Source: Phoronis australis (taxonomy: Eukaryota; Animalia; Phoronida). Taken from it: a DNA stretch of 63,859 bases. The stretch covers positions 124,001 through 187,859 of the forward strand of contig NMRA01000371.1 of assembly GCA_002633005.1 (NCBI GenBank), read 5' to 3'. Shown in pieces: positions 12,292-54,771 of this stretch. Within the stretch, counting starts at the first letter, position 1. Each line of letters opens with the position of its first letter. The translations under genes were made by a program, and so were the position numbers. The notes under the pieces were generated by a model. The model ran no database searches and was not told the origin of the DNA. It saw nothing but the letters and a program-made list of their open reading frames with translations.

Positions 12292-14265
12292 TTTTAGCTC
12301 AACAAAAACGACCAACTGACAAGGCATGCTTGTTCATAATAACAGCAATGATATAGTTAATCAGGTGTTTCATATCCTTGAACTCATGGAGACATCAAAT
12401 GCAATATAAAAACAGCATACGGCTTCTATTTGAGAAGGAACAAGATAATCAAGATTTTGAAAGTTTTTGAGATCTTCAGAAGGTTGAGTTCCCACCAAAA
12501 TTCTAGAAATTATCTCCTGAACTAAGAAACATAGCTTTCAACACCTACAACTCCCTGAATATCCTTGCACAACACTGAAGCAATCCCAACTTACCGTAAA
12601 TAACAAAGTAACTTTATTTGTAGCTGATTCAGCATGACTCTTAATAATCAACTAACATGTTATGTGAAAATCTTACAACTTGATCAATGAAATTTAATGC
12701 ATTAACTAAACGAAAAAAGCTGTCTACAATAAGCCATCATATCTGAAGCCCAGCATTTTTGTGAAAACCCACTCGAGTTCCAAATGTTTGTTAAGTCGCA
12801 CTGTAAATTAGATCCCTTGTACAAACATGGCCTCAGCTCGACTGAAGTCAGTCTTTCGTTCACCTGCCATAATGTCAATACTGGATAGTCAATAGTAAGG
12901 GGCCCGGCACAACAAAATCGACAACGATATTGTTTGAGTTGTGACAGGGAATTGAGGACAATATTGACTGAAAAGGCAGAGAAATATTCAAAAAAACCTG
13001 TGCTATACTAACTAAAGAACAACTCAAATAGAGTCCATTCATACAATTTCTTGCGCAAGGTCAAATTGTGCAGAAAGTGCGAGTCTGTGAGAACTGACGA
13101 CCACAGAGCATCGCACTATACTTATGATTGCAACAGTGGAGTTATGATAGCAGCCCCTCTAGTCAACAGGTGTCAGAGCAGTGTTAGATTAAGGTCATAG
13201 GATACCTGCAATATCATGGACCGAATTCCTTAACAACTCTTTAAGAATTAACAGTAGACCTATAACAAATGTACATTCTAAAATTTTTAATGATCACAGA
13301 TTCCTTTCACATGCACAAAAATGCCCAGATGTTATAAGATATGCAACAGACATCATCTATACATACAAGAAATGGACCTTTTTAGTATTATTATTTTTCA
13401 GAAACTGCACTTTGGGCATGTGGCGTTAAATAATTGAAATACATAAGCAGAAGTTTGGGCAACCTCCCCACTAAAAATATACTACTAAGAACCCTCATTG
13501 TACACAGATGCTCATCTAATCAAATTCATATGAAGAGCATCTACTGCTGGCACAAAACAGTTCGCAAAACATGTTTCCCAGAAAAACAACTTGTCCAGCA
13601 ACGTCCACCAAGGTAAAATAAGCACACGTTTTATTTGGTCTTCAAATATACATACAAAATGTATTTTTGGTCAACGAAACACTCTATAATGCAATCACAA
13701 GCTGGTTATAGTAAATAAATCCTGTGGCTACATAGTAGGGCCCGATTGTGTTGTGTGCTGGGGCCTTGAGCTTAGCTTGCTTGATGGATGAGGCGGCACA
13801 GGTCAGGCGTGAATATTCGCATATATTTATGGTTTTTTGATAGCTCCTCATACAAAAGTGGAACATTATGGAAACAATTCCTCAAGAGTGCTTCAGAGAA
13901 CTGTATAAAGCATAGTACCTGAGAGTTTCACATGAATCCGAAAAACCATTTCTGAGATATGATGTTCCAAAGTTAGACACATCTATACATTTTTTAGGGT
14001 CCTACATGACCTACAAAAATAAACTTCTTTACGAATTACTAAATTCACTTGCCTCATCCACAACATTGCACACAAACTTGACACAGGAAACTTTTCTGTT
14101 TACTATTAGCACAATTTGTAATCTTGAATGGACACCTCACTGACCCAGTCAAGTGGCATCTGATCCTTGGGAATGACCTATTGACCCAGATAACATGACC
14201 TCCAGACGGGTCCAGGTAGTACAAATACACAGCTGCTGACAGTTCAGACAGTGAAGTCCAGCAAC

Positions 14266-39200: not shown

Positions 39201-40127
39201 CAATAAAGGAAAAAACAACAATAAAAAAAGACAAAGTTTATTGACAGGTAAGTCTGAACTTGTTGGGCTTTGGTTTTCAGTATATTCATTATTTTGGCTC
39301 AGAAGTTATCACCACCTCCCGGTGGTAAAAATCGAGTAAACAGGTCCCTCTTGAAAATGGCAGCCAGGAACCAGATTTCACGGAATAACGGACATTGCTG
39401 TAATGCAGTGAAAACTGGTTCAGAGTTGACATTTTCAAGATGGGTCCATTTACTTGACTTATACTCTTCCGGTGATAACTATCATTTGACAAGTTACCCA
39501 TGAGGGCTACCAACAATACCCTACAACAGCTTGGTAAGAAGACCAATTACTTGTTTTCTTGGATTCATAAGAGAACCTGTCTATTAACAGTGATTAATAA
39601 CCAGTATCAATCAACATCAAACTAAACCATTATCAACAAAGACTAACAAAACGAGCTAATTTCAAATACACTTTTCCTAAGGGGGGAGCAGGCAATCCAG
39701 CGCCCCGCCCTCCGAACACCACCAAAAATGTTATAATGACGGCTGTTACAAGCATCTGTCCCTGAGAAAGTGAGGCTGAACCCCTCCCCCAGCCAAAGAT
39801 CCAGGATCTGCCAGTGGCAGTGCCCTACATTTAGACATGGACATGACTATCTTAACAAAAATAATCCAAGTCCTTTAATGCACATACATACAAAGCACAC
39901 CAGCATTATGGAAAAATAAATTACCAATGAGACTAGCATTTTTATAACAAGTTACTCGCAGTTAACACTGGTTACCTTAAGAACTGTCTTCACTCATGGC
40001 TTACTACCTACACTAGGATATCTGTCTTTGTTGCAACTCGTGCTCGTTGGCACGCAAAATGAAACAAAAGAAATTAATTCGTCCGGCCGATTTCTAAGCT
40101 AAAAACGAAAAGCGGTGGTCTACTCAC

Positions 40128-40450
40128 TCTTCCACACTCTCCTGCTTCTCCAATCTTGGTGACCGGCGATTTTTAACAGGGGAATCCTCGCAATTTAAAG
40201 GCCGACCCCTTCGTGACCTTACGCTTACCGAAAGTTTATTCGACTTTTTGGACCCGTTTATGTGAGAAACACGTCCGTTTTTCACAACTTTACCCTGTAC
40301 AGATTTTTTCGATTTTTCGCGAGCAGAGTAACGCTGGTGCTCTCCGTTTATTCTAACGTTTTCGACAAGAACTTCATTTGATTCGTTCAAATTTTCATCA
40401 GTTTCTTTCTTCAAACCGTGAACAATCACCACGCACCCAGCGCCCGCCAT
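40128..40450 (-). CDS. AEBP2: AEBP2/jing first coding exon
   Basis: ATG in CAAGATGGCG context, open frame MAGAGCVV...QESVE, strong donor GA|GTGAGTA at 40127. The 323 nt (phase 2) exon joins in frame (GA+A=Glu) to the phase-2 acceptor at 5596. The linkage is inferred from phase and promoter motifs. Confidence 0.7.
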
Positions 40451-40494
40451 CTTGGTTCAACAATGTGACGTCAAGGTTCAAGGCAGGTCACGTG
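40446..40494 (-). promoter_or_regulatory. AEBP2 proximal promoter motifs (YY1-like, CRE, E-box)
   Basis: CAAGATGGCG over the start codon, TGACGTCA at 40466-40473, GTCACGTG at 40487-40494; locally CpG-rich. Confidence 0.55.
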
Positions 40495-41699: not shown

Positions 41700-43232
41700 G
41701 AGGACGGCTTCGGCCGAGCCGCAACTCGGGCGGCGCAGCCGGGGAACGACCGCAGGAGACGCGTGTCGGGAACCAAAAGCGGGAGGCGAGATTCGGCCGA
41801 GCTGCCATGGGCTGCGCGTGTAGGGGAACAATGGTGGGAGGTAGGCCTCGGCCGAGCTGGAGTAAGCAGCGCGTGACGGGGACCGAAGGAGGAATGCGGG
41901 CCTCGGTCGAGCTGCAGAAGGCGGCGGAGATGCCGGAGTAGGCTACGGGGGGACGCAAGAGCCCGGCGGACTTCGGCTAAGCTTCCGAAAGCAGCGCCGT
42001 CGGGGACAGACGGCTGGAGACGGGCATCAACCAGGCTGCCGCAGGAGGTGCAGACTCGCGCACAGACGGCAGCTAGGCGGGCCTCGGCCAGGCTGCCGAA
42101 GGCAACACAGGCACGGAGCGACTACACTGAGGTACGTACGTGGGAGAGCCTCGGCGGAATACCGGAGCCAGCGCAGGCGTGGTGGCAGGTAGGCGGGCCT
42201 CCGCCGGCCGAGCTGCCGAAGTAAGCGCAGACGCGGACCGATGTAGCGCCGGGTAGGCGGGCCTCCGCCGAGCTGCCGAAGGCAGCGCAGACGCGGACCG
42301 ACGTACCAGGTAGGCGGGACTCAGCCGAGTAGCCGAAGGCGGCGCAGAATTGGAACGACGCAGCGGGCAGGCGGGCCTCGGCCAACGTGGACCGACAAAG
42401 CGGTCAGGCGAGCCACAGCCGGGCTGCCGAAGGCATCGCACTCGTGGACCAGCGACGTACGCGGGTAGTCGGGCCTGGTCCAATCCAAGGAAGGCAGCGC
42501 TGACGCCGGCAGACCGACTTAGCTGGTAGACGGGCCTCGTCCAAGCTGCCGGCGCAGACGCGGGCCGACATAGTAGGTAGGCGGGCCGTGTCAGAGCTGC
42601 CGAAGGCAGCGCAGACGCGGGCCGACGTAGCTGGCAGGCTCGGACAGACGTGGCACGTAGACGGTCATCGGCCTTGCCGCAGAAGGCAGCGCCGGATCGG
42701 ACCGACGTGGCACGTACGCGGCCGTCGGCAAAGCCACCGAAGGCAGCGCCGCCCGGGCTCGGACCGACGTGGCACGTAGGCGGCCCTCGGACAAGCCGTC
42801 GAACTGAAGGCAGCGCCGACTCGGGCCGACGGGGCACTTAGTCGGACCTCGGACAAGCTGCAGGAGGCTAGGCGGGCTCGTGCCGACGTGGCACTTTGGC
42901 GGGCCCAGCCAAGCTGCCGAAGGCAGCGCAGGCACGGCACGACCTTAGCACTTTGGAAGGCCCAACCAGGCTGCCGAAGGCAGCGCAGGCACGGCACGAC
43001 GTTGCATTTGGCGGGCCCAGCCAAGAAGCCGAAGGCCGCAGCGCAGGCAGGCTCCGACGTAGCACTTAGGCGGGCCTCAGCCAAGCTGCCGAAGGCAGCG
43101 AAGGCAGGCTCCGACGTAGCACTTAGGTGGGCCCCAGCCAAGCTGACAAAGGCAGCGCAGGCAGGCTCCGACGTACCACTTAGGCGGGCCCCAGCCAAGC
43201 TGCCGAAGGCAGCGCAGGCAGGCTCCGACGTA
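41700..43232. repeat. GC-rich ~60-bp tandem array with GCTGCC-GAA-GGCAGC hairpin core
   Basis: About 25 units, near-identical at the right end (truncated by N at 43233) and progressively more diverged leftwards. Confidence 0.9.
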
Positions 43233-43739
43233 NTTGGAAAGAATACTTTGTTCGTTTTATTATTATCATGAGGGACATTTGTGTGCCATAAATTATTTTC
43301 GTCACACGAGCCTGTGGGACTTAAGTACATCAGTAGAGGTCTTGGCTCTGTTTTTTGGGTAATTCCTCTTTCTGAGAGTTGGATAAAGCAAAAGAAAACG
43401 AATACCAAGCTCTTTACAACACTATATACTATGTACAAGGTCCAGACGTTTTGTTACTTAGCTTAGAACGTCGTCTGTGAAAACCACACAGCTACAAGGT
43501 GAACACTGCTGACTAATTATGCGCCCACATATTTATATGTGGACGCATTATATATTAGTATTGTAAATATGACATCGTTGGCAAAAGCATTTATTTGTTT
43601 TTGTTTTCTTTTGTTAATTTGGCTAAAAATGAGAATTATCAGTTGGCTATAAGGAAGGTCCATGCTGATTCTGTTGAAGACCATTGTCCATAGTAAAATG
43701 GAACAAGTGATTTCTAAGTAGACTAAGTATAATTGCTTA

Positions 43740-44691: not shown

Positions 44692-44800
44692 GCAATGGCA
44701 GCACAATCTTTGGTTGCAACGCGAAGCTGAGGCTCAAAGAGAGTGGAAATGGAAGAAACAACGAGAGGAGAAGGAGAGGCTGAGACTGGAGGAAGAGGAG
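44692..44800 (+). CDS. ZRSR2: ZRSR2/Urp coding exon (coiled coil; first exon found, not the true first)
   Basis: tttgtttcAG| ... |GTAGGT; 109 nt, QWQHNLWLQREAEAQREWKWKKQREEKERLRLEEEE, resembling ZRSR2 RLHEEWLLREQKAQEEF. Confidence 0.88.
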
Positions 44801-45262: not shown

Positions 45263-45433
45263 GGTGGGTCTCGAACTCACAAACTTCAGAATAGGAATGG
45301 GTCACCCGGTCCACTAGGGCGGCCTGCGCACGTCTGGTACAATGTGTACTGGACTGCCTGCAGTTATTTTTTTATCCCACTAGGGCGTGCTGTCTCCTCT
45401 TGTTTAGCTGAGTTAGTTGTGGTTGTGTTACAG

Positions 45434-45517
45434 AGAAGGATTAAAGAGGAATGGGAGGAGAGACAAAGGGAAGAGAAAGAGAGAGAAGAGAAGGAAGCAA
45501 AGAGAAAAGTTGAACAG
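45434..45517 (+). CDS. ZRSR2: ZRSR2 coding exon (coiled coil)
   Basis: ttacAG| RRIKEEWEERQREEKEREEKEAKRKVEQ |GTGAAG (weak U2 donor); 84 nt, phase 0-0. Confidence 0.88.
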
Positions 45518-45549
45518 GTGAAGGGGCGCCAGTGGTGCTTCTGTGACAC

Positions 45550-45946
45550 ATATCCTCAACTGCAATTGGTTATTTTTCACTGGTTCCTGTGTTTTTACAA
45601 TCCACTGCTATTATGAATGGTATCGTTATTCCATAGAGGGAGATCACGTTTTAGTGCACTATTTCACATGCCTGCGCAATAAGCTCCAGTTATGAAGTGA
45701 CACGCGTTCTAGCGTGTCAGGTTGCTATGCTGGATTTCTGTTTACAAGTTTTTAGCATTCAAGGCTTTAGTCTTACTGTGTTGTGTAAGGATAAGAATAC
45801 AAAATGCAAAACGCTTCATAGGATTTTCGAGAAAGGCTTATTTAGGTTTTTTGTATCCTGAGTAAAATGCATGGGAAACTTCGTATTGTTAGTGTGGTAT
45901 TTCTGTTTGTGATATTGTATTGTTAATAACCTTAACTATTTGACAC
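45550..45946 (+). other. Putative U12-type AT-AC intron nested in ZRSR2 U2 intron
   Basis: 5' ATATCCTC at 45550; branch site ACCTTAAC at 45929-45936; CAC ending at 45946, 11 nt after the branch A. Confidence 0.7.
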
Positions 45947-45999
45947 TCGGACGACATCATGCGCTATGTATACTATGTATACTATTGCTGGTGGGTGAA
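45947..45999 (+). other. Putative poison exon between the two U12 introns
   Basis: 53 nt bounded by U12 signals; in the ZRSR2 frame reads TRTTSCAMYTMYTIAGG then TGA at 45996-45998. Confidence 0.65.
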
Positions 46000-46810
46000 G
46001 TATCCTTGACTGGACTCTCCATTTTCAGTTCATATTCCATTGTATGGTTGAATGAACATCTCCATAGCAACACATGCAGGCACATTAAAGCAACACTCTT
46101 TCCCAATCTTCAACGGGGAGTTTCCCGTTTTCTTCACTAAAGACTGAGTTAAGGTTATGAAGACCATTATCGACATGTCTGTGCACTTAGTAAAATCTCT
46201 AGAAAACTAAGTTTTAGCTCAGTCTGTAAAAGTATATATTTTCTGAAAATAGAAAGCCTGTATTTTTTTACTTTTTACCGTTCAACTATTAATAGGGTCA
46301 TGTGACCGTGTCTTTTGGGTAAAATTTAGCAAAGAAGAAAGATACATTGATTACAAAACAACAGTAACATGATCCAATTTTATGTGACATAATTGTTCAA
46401 AGTGAGGTATCACAAACGCTGTTACAATTTTCGAAAGTATCTTTTCTTATCATTTTATTTAACTTAAAGAATTTTCTTGATAATCATAAAATTTCTATAT
46501 TATGATAGCCCTTCATACACAAGTGGAAAATCTTAAAAACCATTCTTAACAGCATTTTTATAATTACTGGATAAAGCATCGCATGTGAAAGTTTGGTATG
46601 AAGCCAGTCGGCCATTTGTGAGATATGGTGTTACGAAGTCAGTCAAATTTGGCCAGTTCTGTATAACCTTGAGTTCGGCGACTGTTTCTGTAGCTTGTTT
46701 GTGCACATCAAGCTTGGTCTCCATCAGTTTGTGCCACGTTGATGTTTATGATTTTATTAAACTGTCATGCACACTGTTCAGATTGTTCACCAACTTAACC
46801 TCAAGTTCAG
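46000..46810 (+). other. Putative U12-type GT-AG intron nested in ZRSR2 U2 intron
   Basis: 5' GTATCCTT at 46000; branch-like ACTTAAC at 46793-46799; CAG ending at 46810, 12 nt after the branch A and 32 nt upstream of the U2 acceptor. Confidence 0.68.
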
Positions 46811-46842
46811 CTTATTCAGATAAACCGCTGCCACTGTTGTAG

Positions 46843-46881
46843 GAAAGACTCCTGAAAGAAGCCACGGCTAATGAGAAAAAG
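46843..46881 (+). CDS. ZRSR2: ZRSR2 39-nt exon
   Basis: ttgtAG| ERLLKEATANEKK |GTATGA; phase 0-0; corresponds to the short EALQKMLDQAENE segment of vertebrate ZRSR2. Confidence 0.82.
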
Positions 46882-47770
46882 GTATGAGTCTAGTAGCAGA
46901 TCTGGTAAAGACATTTTGTGGGATCGTGTTTTGCATGTCATTCATCTTCAGACATTGACAAGAATGTTAGAATGAAAAATGAGCAGGTTAAGGAAAACAT
47001 GAAGTCTAGTTGAACGTTTGTAGAAAGAATATGTGGTCTGTATTCTGCATCCTATTTCATAAAAGTGACTTTAATAAGAATTAAGGCAGAAATTTGGTCT
47101 TACACTCCCAGTCCACAGTTGCTGTATAAGGGTTTAGCCAAGTAGCTATCAGCGCATCGTAGTCTGTAAAAATGTTTTATAGAAATTATCCCAGTAAACA
47201 GAAATTGTCGGTATATTGCAAGAGACTTTACATTTTTGCTTAAGGAAGATTTAATGAATACTTGTGTGGAGCATAAGACCCAAGTTTCAGTCTTGATTCT
47301 TAGGTCATTTTTCATGAAACAGACGACTGGTGTTGAAAGTTGTGTCATGTGGCGACCCCTGTTATTGACCTCTCAACAGACAGATGATCAGTTTGAATGC
47401 GTTTGCATCTAAGAGTAAAGACTTGTAGGATTCGATGATCCATCATTTGCATTTCCCTGTATGTGTCAATCACATGTGTATGTGTCAGTCACATGTGTAT
47501 GTGTCAGGGCTCGACGTTATTCAAATCACCAGATTGCATTTTGCGACCTAGCCAAAATCCCAGGTTGCATTTTCAAAATCCAGCTCGCATTCTTAAATGC
47601 CAGGTCGCAAAAATTTCCCGCCATTTTTACGCTCCAAAATCGATTTTTTAGATTACCGAGAAAATGTATAGATTATGCTCTTACCTGCAGCGTTAAATAC
47701 TGACAAATTTCAGATCGCAAAATTGAGTTCGTTCATGCAGGTACGGTATTACTGTTCCTCACGACGGCTA

Positions 47771-49904: not shown

Positions 49905-50017
49905 GTTGATGGTGAAGCTTGGCACAATCCCATCGCCCCTGTACAGTACGGTGAAGAGAGGAAAGTGGAACTGTGTCCCTTTTTCATGAAGACTGGCGCC
50001 TGCAGATTTGGTGAGAG
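49905..50017 (+). CDS. ZRSR2: ZRSR2 exon, start of CCCH finger 1
   Basis: acaacAG| VDGEAWHNPIAPVQYGEERKVELCPFFMKTGACRFGER |GTAAGA; 113 nt. Confidence 0.93.
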
Positions 50018-51193: not shown

Positions 51194-51300
51194 GTGTTCA
51201 CGAGGTCATGATTACCCAGAATCCAGTTGTACACTGCTGTTTCCTGGCATGTACGCCCACTTTAGTCTGGAACAAGCTCTGCATGATGAATATGACACAG
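51194..51300 (+). CDS. ZRSR2: ZRSR2 exon, end of CCCH1 / start of UHM-RRM
   Basis: cttctAG| CSRGHDYPESSCTLLFPGMYAHFSLEQALHDEYDT |GTAGGC; 107 nt, phase 2-1. Confidence 0.92.
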
Positions 51301-52223: not shown

Positions 52224-52386
52224 ATTTCAACCTTGAGTATGAAGACACTGAAATGAGGAAACACTTTGATGACTTCTATCGGGACATTGTTCCTGAGTTC
52301 AAAAAGATAGGTCAGGTGCTACAGGTAAAGGTGTGTCGAAACTATGAACCACACCTGAGGGGCAACGTCTACATACAGTATCGCAG
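52224..52386 (+). CDS. ZRSR2: ZRSR2 exon, UHM-RRM
   Basis: ttacAG| FNLEYEDTEMRKHFDDFYRDIVPEFKKIGQVLQVKVCRNYEPHLRGNVYIQYR |GTGAGA; 163 nt. Confidence 0.95.
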
Positions 52387-52748: not shown

Positions 52749-52858
52749 GCCAGAGGAAGCTGATGAAGCATTTGTCAAGTTCAACGCTCGCTGGTATGGA
52801 GGACGCCAGCTCAACTGTCAGTATACACATGTAGATAACTGGAAGGCTGCTATTTGTG
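52749..52858 (+). CDS. ZRSR2: ZRSR2 exon, end of UHM
   Basis: gtatAG| PEEADEAFVKFNARWYGGRQLNCQYTHVDNWKAAIC |GTAAGT; 110 nt; contains the UHM RW(Y/F) motif. Confidence 0.95.
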
Positions 52859-53588: not shown

Positions 53589-54175
53589 ACAGCAGTGACT
53601 CATCCTTACTGGTAAACTGAAAAGTACCCCATATGGACCTACTTTATTCAAGGTTGAATACTAAGCTTGCACAACCTTGCTAGTAACCAGGTACTGTCGA
53701 AGTTTATTGTCGCTAATGAATGAGCCATGGGATATGTTTATTTTTATTGCCCGTTGATTAGAAGATTAGACTGTGTTATGCAAGTTGCTTAAGGCAGTCA
53801 GCTTGAATTACACTGCTACTGACCAAGAGGTCTATTTAGCCTTGCAATCGTCTGTATAAAAGGAGTAAGGAAGTTCAAGGTTGGTGATAACTATCAAATA
53901 ATGGGATGTACCATTCAGTTTGTCTTAAGGTGGTCAAAGGGAGCTGTGTAGAGTAGTGGATTGATCTTCATGTGAAGGATGTCCTGGCAAAAGAAGGCTT
54001 AATTTTTCAAAAAATTTGAAATAGCAAATTAAGACTGAAGAAATGTACATAACAAGTGTTTTCCTGCTGTCGTAGGGTTTTTCTGTTACGGTTCATTATA
54101 CCATTGTATCCTCTGAACAACACTGAAGAACTGTGCAGCCTCTTATGCATCATAAAAAGTGCTTGTTCATTTCAG

Positions 54176-54771
54176 GTTTGTATTTTTCGAAAAGATGTCC
54201 GAAAGGAAAAAGTTGTAACTTTCTCCATGTTTTTCGAAATCCTGGCAATGAGTTTGGTAACTATGGACAGTTTAACCGCGGCCATAATAACCATCATGGA
54301 AACAGAAACTATAATGACATTAACCGGGAAAGACGACCTAGTGCACGAAGGTCACGATCTAGGGAAAGGTCAAGTAAGAGGAGGTCGCGATCAAGATCTC
54401 GAGAGAAATCACGACGGAGAGAAAACTCTGTTGAAAGATCACGGAGGTCACGGTCGAGATCCAAAGACAGGTCACGCTCAAGGAGCAGAGAACACTCTAG
54501 GAGGAGGATAAAGGTTAGTGGTCATAGGTCACGACACAGGTCACGATCAAGATCAAGGGAGAGGGAGAAAACTCCAGATTGTGATGGTAATGGTGACAAT
54601 TCGGATGGTAGCTCTGATAGCTACAGGAAGAGGAAAACAAAAAAGAAACACAAGAAACATAAAAAACACAGTAAGAAAGGTAGTCCTGTTGTGAAAGACA
54701 AAGAAAACTCACTCACAAAACATGAAATTGAAACTGCACCACAAAGTGAAAATGAGGACAAAGTGACGTAA
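54176..54771 (+). CDS. ZRSR2: ZRSR2 last coding exon: CCCH finger 2, RS domain, Lys/His-rich tail
   Basis: tttcAG| GLYFSKRCPKGKSCNFLHVFRNPGNEF...RSRSRERSS...KKKHKKHKKH...stop TAA. Confidence 0.95.

Follow-up and report, generated by a model that had tools for sequence, protein, structure and literature searches.

ZRSR2 (also URP), a recurrent blood-cancer gene, encodes a 3′ splice-site factor of the minor spliceosome. In the phoronid Phoronis australis, a single U2-type intron of this gene contains two U12-type introns that flank an internal exon, and here we compare this nested cassette with the closest described systems and with the same intron in other animals. The window, meaning the whole stretch of DNA that was analysed, comprises 63,859 nt. 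Published work is cited as far as the accessible text of each source extends.

ZRSR2 acts at U12 acceptors (PMC8329584, PMC11347168). Beyond a proposal for the fly, we found no account in the accessible literature of how ZRSR2 level is controlled; in reviews, feedback counts as demonstrated only for SNRNP48 and RNPC3, and the fly Urp U12 intron is regarded as a recent gain without parallel. Fly Urp (dUrp, CG3294) has one GT–AG U12 intron with U2 sites 29 and 30 nt upstream, yielding proteins of 314 versus 456 aa; the U12 form is stabilised 1.4–1.8-fold in NMD mutants and the site is absent outside Diptera (PMC2831892). The fly intron is described as shifted and as the first known de novo minor intron (PMC3564746, PMC3291851), is listed elsewhere as U12-inside (PMC8329584), and has been suggested to mediate feedback (PMC3584512, PMC6865273). 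The window concerns the same gene, and in both cases the U2 splice is productive, the U12 splice leads to a premature stop (a prediction for the window) and the U12 donor follows the U2 donor by about 30 nt (29 nt in the fly, 32 nt in the window). However, the fly has one GT–AG U12 intron that is shifted relative to the U2 intron, whereas in the window an AT–AC intron and then a GT–AG intron lie wholly inside it, around an exon; moreover, the fly site is called Diptera-specific, whereas the cassette spans cnidarians to molluscs. An earlier note on this DNA mentioned a layout of two U12 introns within a U2 intron for insect Urp, which is contradicted by the accessible text on the fly gene, in which the U12 intron is single, and shifted rather than nested (PMC2831892, PMC3564746).

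Three further kinds of system invite comparison. SNRNP48 and RNPC3 (PMC8329584, PMC3584512) resemble the window in combining a minor-spliceosome gene, conserved U12 5′ splice-site motifs in non-coding sequence and unproductive RNA. Their USSE consists of donors in tandem that are not themselves spliced and that activate a U2 acceptor upstream, whereas the window donors lie 450 nt apart and each has its own branch point and acceptor; counterparts of the window donors are spliced in contigs L002 and L003 of a relative, and the cassette does not have the form of a USSE. For the nested introns of SRSF10 and prospero (PMC8329584), the major and minor spliceosomes compete for one region, and in SRSF10 an internal exon decides the outcome; there the U12 sites lie outside and are productive (SRSF10), whereas in the window they lie inside, are doubled and are predicted to be unproductive. 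The twintrons of PRMT1, NCBP2, CTNNBL1, CUL4A and SPAG16 (PMC3564746, PMC8329584) hold a U12 intron inside a U2 intron, as does the window, and the U12 form of PRMT1 carries a premature stop, as predicted here. Unlike the window, these genes have, in the accessible text, one U12 intron each, a vertebrate range and products that are not minor-spliceosome components.

No description of a double-U12 ZRSR2 cassette was found in the literature covered; Hafez and Hausner 2015 and Fouquet 2011 fell outside this scope and could hold one. The cassette is undescribed in the accessible text of PMC13550442, PMC10639083, PMC7367187, PMC11874965, PMC10853781, PMC2952598, bioRxiv 10.1101/341917 and PMC8299061, the last of which reports, on Fouquet 2011, 19 splice variants of maize Rgh3.

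The ZRSR2 gene in the window

The window gene is ZRSR2/URP: it encodes a CCCH finger, a UHM, a second finger and an RS tail, and its named matches are ZRSR2 proteins. A tree of 55 core sequences places it among molluscs (97/97), its top identity is 68%, to P0049 (by its accession presumably a chiton), and its UHM resembles U2AF35 structures. In human numbering, we take the exon before the cassette to be exon 5 and the outer intron to be intron 5. The coding exons located are as follows.

44692–44800, plus strand: ZRSR2 coding exon, coiled-coil region; first exon located, with splice motifs and an open frame
45434–45517, plus strand: exon before the cassette (IKEEWEE exon), with sense RNA reads
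46843–46881, plus strand: 39-nt coding exon after the cassette (ERLLKEATANEKK)
49905–50017, plus strand: CCCH zinc finger 1 exon (Pfam PF00642, E=1.9e-07)
51194–51300, 52224–52386 and 52749–52858, plus strand: UHM/RRM domain, three exons
54176–54771, plus strand: last coding exon, zinc finger 2 and RS region, with weak Pfam CCCH matches

A tblastn search of the window with mollusc N-termini found no ZRSR2 exons upstream of 44692, and a one-base gap at 43233 may conceal the first ones. The sequence at 41790–43232 is a GC-rich tandem array of 55–57-nt units with long open frames on both strands, which ends at a one-base assembly gap; further upstream, 40127–40456 on the minus strand is likely the first exon of a divergently transcribed gene and starts MAGAG.

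The 39-nt exon is skipped in frame in the vertebrate ZRSR2 models P0023, P0024, P0038, P0046, P0068 and P0102; since the outer intron precedes this exon, its boundaries are common to vertebrates. Many assembly-derived fish- or amphibian-like ZRSR2 proteins (P0043, P0051, P0057, P0058, P0061, P0062, P0082, P0093, P0099, P0100) start just past the cassette junction, and coral ZRSR2 proteins do likewise. Such starts could mean alternative splicing in vertebrates, and clustering and length bias could account for them too.

Two U12-type introns nested in one U2-type intron

The outer intron can be divided into five consecutive parts, given here after the whole.

45518–46842, plus strand: outer U2-type intron, 1325 nt; weak CAG/GTGAAG donor; junction agrees with homologous proteins
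45518–45549, plus strand: 5′ segment, 32 nt; exonic if the first U12 donor is used; matching-donor read-through in contigs L002 and L008
45550–45946, plus strand: nested U12-type intron A, AT–AC, 397 nt; donor ATATCCTC, branch ACCTTAAC at 45929–45936, CAC terminus
45947–45999, plus strand: internal exon, 53 nt; TGA at 45996–45998 in frame
46000–46810, plus strand: nested U12-type intron B, GT–AG, 811 nt; donor GTATCCTT, branch ACTTAAC at 46793–46799, CAG terminus
46811–46842, plus strand: 3′ segment, 32 nt, between the second U12 acceptor and the U2 acceptor; TAG at 46840–46842; U2-type branch motif inside

Every motif of the ordered U12 set that the earlier note described lies where it was placed, and the branch-to-3′ end distances of 11 nt (after ACCTTAAC, to AC) and 12 nt (after ACTTAAC, to AG) are those it gave. 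Both distances fall within the 10–20 nt of U12 branches, for which a polypyrimidine tract is unneeded. The AT-type donor of intron A lies at +33 of the outer intron, and the termini of both nested introns are matched by subtype (AT with AC, GT with AG). The donors have the extended RTATCCTT-like form and depart from the U12 consensus at two of nine positions (ATATCCTCA) and at one (GTATCCTTG), these being counts of mismatches to the consensus rather than PWM or intronIC scores. The U12 intron examples in Table 1 of PMC7367187, in its accessible text, agree with that consensus.

Removal of 45518–46842 gives the full-length ZRSR2 frame. Removal of both U12 introns gives a product longer by 117 nt (32+53+32) with in-frame TGA 45996 and TAG 46840, in agreement with the earlier calculation, while a skip that joins 45549 to 46811 adds 64 nt and shifts the frame to a stop. 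Every U12 product examined stops before the zinc fingers, as had been claimed, and TGA 45996 precedes six later exons, which makes it a premature stop well upstream of later junctions. The U2 product is implied by full-length homologous proteins, and the U12 products are known from relatives only. With U2 and U12 site sets at one gene position and both U12 pairs within 45518–46842, the locus has the arrangement of sites of a spliceosomal twintron as defined in the accessible text of PMC3564746. Folding of the RNA of 45500–46050 indicates no special structure (z=+1.45), and Rfam has no matches across the window.

Two complete, type-matched U12-like introns in series are found in none of 40,000 dinucleotide shuffles of the outer intron and in none of 612 overlapping tiles of the remaining window; one such intron is found in 228 of the 40,000 shuffles. 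Further plus-strand matches to ATATCCT[TC] lie at 12372, 12559, 21365, 55717 and 63603, with no paired branch motif in range. The last ZRSR2 intron contains, at 54060–54115, a possible acceptor (..TCGTAG) followed 29 nt on by GTATCCTC; the true acceptor lies about 70 nt further along, and the matching stretch of six other loci has no GTATCCTC-like donor. The pair is probably a chance occurrence. The U12-like motifs that occur in the last intron of the insect loci L040/L041, and those of L065, are remote from splice sites, and we regard them as chance.

A proposed negative-feedback switch

We propose, at a probability of about 0.68, that the cassette is a negative-feedback switch, through which an active minor spliceosome would draw ZRSR2 pre-mRNA away from the productive U2 splice. 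Binding of U11/U12 30–60 nt downstream of the weak U2 donor would outcompete U1: when U1 won, the cassette would be skipped, and when U11/U12 won, a stop-containing RNA or a stall would follow. The stop-containing form would be subject to NMD or would encode the coiled coil only; alternatively, a stall would leave the intron partly retained. ZRSR2 has a role in recognising U12 3′ splice sites, and a rise in ZRSR2 would therefore lower the amount of productive ZRSR2 mRNA, closing a negative loop. Two minor introns in series would provide two chances of capture and an exon bounded by U12 signals on both sides.

Precedents for this feedback logic are SNRNP48/RNPC3 (PMC3584512) and the AS-NMD of fly dUrp (PMC2831892 supplement). 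Several observations count against the switch, among them the lack of listed junctions at the cassette in the RNA of this species, the degenerate first donor of corals and the motif-free arthropod intron, all described below. A CC in the branch favours minor-spliceosome use (PMC11347168), and the second branch lacks this CC in the window (ACTTAAC) and in most relatives; in fly U6atac mutants, CG3294 probes are without significant change in the accessible text of PMC2952598. Stops are expected by chance in 117–223 nt of non-coding sequence, so their presence is no proof of selection for decay.

Conservation of the cassette in other animals

A scan around the zinc-finger-1 exon yielded 79 loci. 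Thirteen intron sequences were scored: that of the window, those of 11 loci in which both ends are present, and that of L012, which is without the donor end; L011 (the same intron as L009) and L002 (whose exon was missed by the pattern) stand outside these 13. The control consisted of 346 tiles of other sequence on both strands, from which L001, L011, L013 and L014 were excluded as likely copies of the intron. The earlier note had proposed that the nested motifs be sought in the same intron of relatives. Under a comparative rule that was relaxed (GTATC[CT]T, CTTAAC) after positives had been seen, the full four-motif order is present in 5/13 introns (window, L012, L021, L024, L052) and 0/346 tiles, and a module of branch plus GT donor in 10/13 (those five, L071, L074 and the corals L009, L010 and L078) and 4/346. 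Since L009 and L078 come from one species and the members of the pairs L024/L052 and L071/L074 are related, the module represents about six lineages. Three of the four control matches to the module (L049, L050, L051) are this same intron, in contigs without the upstream exon.

The order and geometry of individual signals are also shared. Of 12 rows that include the U2 donor, 6 have ATATCCT no more than 70 nt from it, against none of 33 rows with RTATCCT for the intron after finger 1. The donor-then-branch order of intron A is the same in L012, L021, L024, L052, L071 and L074; among the six AT-donor loci in which branch 1 is present, AC follows as the terminus in five, the exception being L021, which has no AC there and AT at 12 nt. 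After branch 2 the terminus is AG. Branch 2 was not found in L071/L074, and it occurs alone upstream of the next exon in the partial loci L014, L022, L030, L033, L034, L036 and L048. Between L024 and L052 only three blocks align at E<1e-9: from the U2 donor to the first U12 donor, from branch 1 through the exon to the second donor, and from branch 2 to the acceptor.

Segment lengths vary. The 5′ segment of relatives measures 29–59 nt (134 nt in L074), the 3′ segment 29–97 nt and the internal-exon counterparts 42–83 nt (127 nt in L002/L003). The 32/32-nt spacing to which the earlier note drew attention is present in the window, but its symmetry is unconserved; neither this symmetry nor the in-frame 117 nt is kept in relatives, and both were rejected as conserved traits and are incidental. 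Stops occur in all five both-U12 products computed (the window and four relatives). The weakness of the U2 donor, also claimed earlier, is borne out as a conserved lack of +5G, which is missing from all nine distinct rows of the cassette intron, whereas the intron after zinc finger 1 has it in 22 of 27 (Fisher p=2e-5, rows non-independent).

Tree placement identifies L008 and L010 as stony corals (99/96), L007 as a sponge (98/94) and L001 as a gastropod. L033, L049 and L051 form a clade near Lingula and molluscs, probably annelids, to which L024 and L052 were assigned by exon likeness and not by the tree. L012 is a bivalve (75% to Mactra), and L002 groups with P0139 (100/100), whose accession we take to be a scyphozoan jellyfish; L055, L071 and L074 are unplaced, and the ESM Atlas gave L055 no placement. 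In corals the first U12 donor is degenerate (GTATCCG/C). The 167-nt sponge intron carries a single strong AT donor, at +37, and its branch motif is no more than weak; the 83-nt intron of L054, the sole arthropod intron seen, has no U12 motif. Because corals, a jellyfish-like cnidarian and, with one donor, a sponge carry it, the cassette is older than bilaterians and predates the cnidarian–bilaterian split. The earlier suggestion of an ancient bilaterian circuit underestimated the age.

Splicing in transcript contigs of relatives

The evidence for junctions is drawn from assembled contigs, all of them from other species. L002–L006 are contigs of one cnidarian-like species, 98–99% alike, with later introns spliced. 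L003 corresponds to L002 minus exactly 231–1602 (1372 nt), from GTATCTTT to CCTTGAC..CAG; in L003, compared with L002, the counterpart of the second nested intron has been excised precisely at its U12 signals. In L002, the upstream exon plus 37 nt is joined to the internal exon, and L003 has at that junction an intron end with TTCTTAAC 11–12 nt upstream and no AG, which fits branch-directed choice of a U12 acceptor (the donor of that intron is absent from the contigs). The counterpart of the first nested intron is likewise removed in this species, and the doubly spliced L002/L003 frame runs into TAG. The nested sites are conserved and are used as splice sites in a relative.

Other contigs add to this picture. 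Coral contig L008 has an 81-nt insert at the junction, with read-through of the donor and TGA at codon 12; the insert then matches the internal exon of L009/L010 and is followed by the next exon from an internal donor. L055 resembles a form with the first intron out and the second kept, in a loose alignment. Among 29 contigs with the after-finger-1 junction joined, a comparison subject to assembly and length bias, those of cnidarians, the gastropod, L055 and L015–L020 that are long enough have no open frame here, and the insect-like L060/L061 keep one through the cassette junction. The public gene models P0004, P0135 and P0139 carry extra sequence at this junction. In L015–L018 (an unplaced animal), frameshifting inserts of 50–53 nt occur at the same junction, before the short exon, and in L015 TTCTTAAC precedes the acceptor of the next exon; these inserts may be another form of the cassette.

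The contigs bear on a second account, the main rival to diversion, in which the locus is a sequential, inside-out twintron: the major spliceosome would act on the 117-nt remainder after both minor introns had been taken out, and minor splicing would license or delay productive mRNA instead of poisoning it. The remainder retains the GTGAAG donor, the AG and a CTTAT branch motif that lies 32 nt from its end, remainders are of spliceable size in all relatives (totals of 135–223 nt), and L002, L003 and L055 look like partly spliced intermediates. In L008 and L002–L006, however, the acceptor of the next exon is consumed by another internal donor, giving stop-containing products with later introns spliced, and a conserved weak U2 donor close to a U12 donor suits competition better than sequential removal. 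We consider the sequential account improbable and favour diversion by the minor spliceosome.

RNA reads of Phoronis australis

Reads from three RNA runs of the species (18–19% of each) were mapped to 45300–47200. Depth is 0–7, with reads on the sense strand only outside repeats and spread through the outer intron, and at this depth no U2 or U12 junction at the cassette is listed in the three runs. The sole joint listed is a 69-nt GA..TA skip at 46340–46410 in X3, which is probably allelic. X1 reads close to the first U12 acceptor continue into the intron. Short dispersed repeats at 46212–46262, 45320–45374 and 47074–47110 draw reads from elsewhere on both strands and distort depth in and beside the intron. 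Within the first nested intron, 45818–45916 shows many allelic differences and indels in X1 reads; among the X1 variants listed, which come from few reads, none affects branch 1, the acceptor that follows it or the second donor.

The lack of a junction in the reads of this species, the absence of the cassette from the one arthropod intron and the degenerate first donor of corals could be read as signs of a neutral relic, or of chance U12-like motifs, with no regulatory role. Set against this reading are the shuffle and tile controls, the footprint conservation, the exact U12 junction in L003 and persistence across phyla in non-coding DNA. We judge it highly improbable and close to refuted; the nested U12 cassette in ZRSR2 is real.

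In X1 and X2, the sense depth of the outer intron is like that of the flanking exon, and the first 128 nt of the next intron have zero reads, a hint of retention from reads too shallow to inform on splicing. This pattern agrees with a detention switch, likened to RNPC3 nuclear retention or USSE-type binding, in which U11/U12 would mainly block the U2 splice, the intron would be retained and U12 splicing would be a minor side path; L001, L009 and L010 also retain the outer intron despite spliced neighbouring downstream introns. The read numbers are tiny, however, and L010 and L011 retain other introns too. Detention also sits poorly with the conservation of branch points and matched termini and with both nested introns having been seen removed. 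Detention as the main mode is unlikely in our estimation, and the diversion of pre-mRNA from the productive U2 splice stays our preferred reading.

Relation to fly Urp and evolution of the cassette

In two insect ZRSR2 proteins, the cassette junction and the end of finger 2 are 193 residues apart, which exceeds the approximately 150 left in the fly, so the fly intron most probably corresponds to a later one. In the two insect proteins, the intron that precedes finger 2 falls at aa 305–309; the fly short form has 314 of 456 aa. Judged by protein lengths only, the fly U12 intron very probably occupies another position than the window cassette, most likely before finger 2. In 18 rows of the intron before zinc finger 2, some of them not true introns, the first 100 nt contain no U12 donor. 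The ZRSR2 cassette would work like dUrp but is not the dUrp element.

These comparisons lead us to lean, if only slightly, towards a history in which early animals braked ZRSR2 by means of minor introns hidden in one major intron, seen as a U12 donor in the sponge and as a double-U12 poison-exon cassette from cnidarians to molluscs; at least some insects would then have lost the brake and flies rebuilt it in another intron. If so, the ‘only known de novo minor intron’ of the fly would be a replacement for an ancestral sensor. More hidden cassettes would also be expected, since nested introns are invisible to annotation-based catalogues of minor introns. According to its accessible text, intronIC (PMC7367187) scores only annotated introns of the longest isoform, and nested minor introns of this class are therefore missed by such tools. 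A cassette shared across phyla in the same intron recasts the fly Urp case as a likely re-invention and opens minor-spliceosome homeostasis to direct tests in cnidarian and mollusc models.
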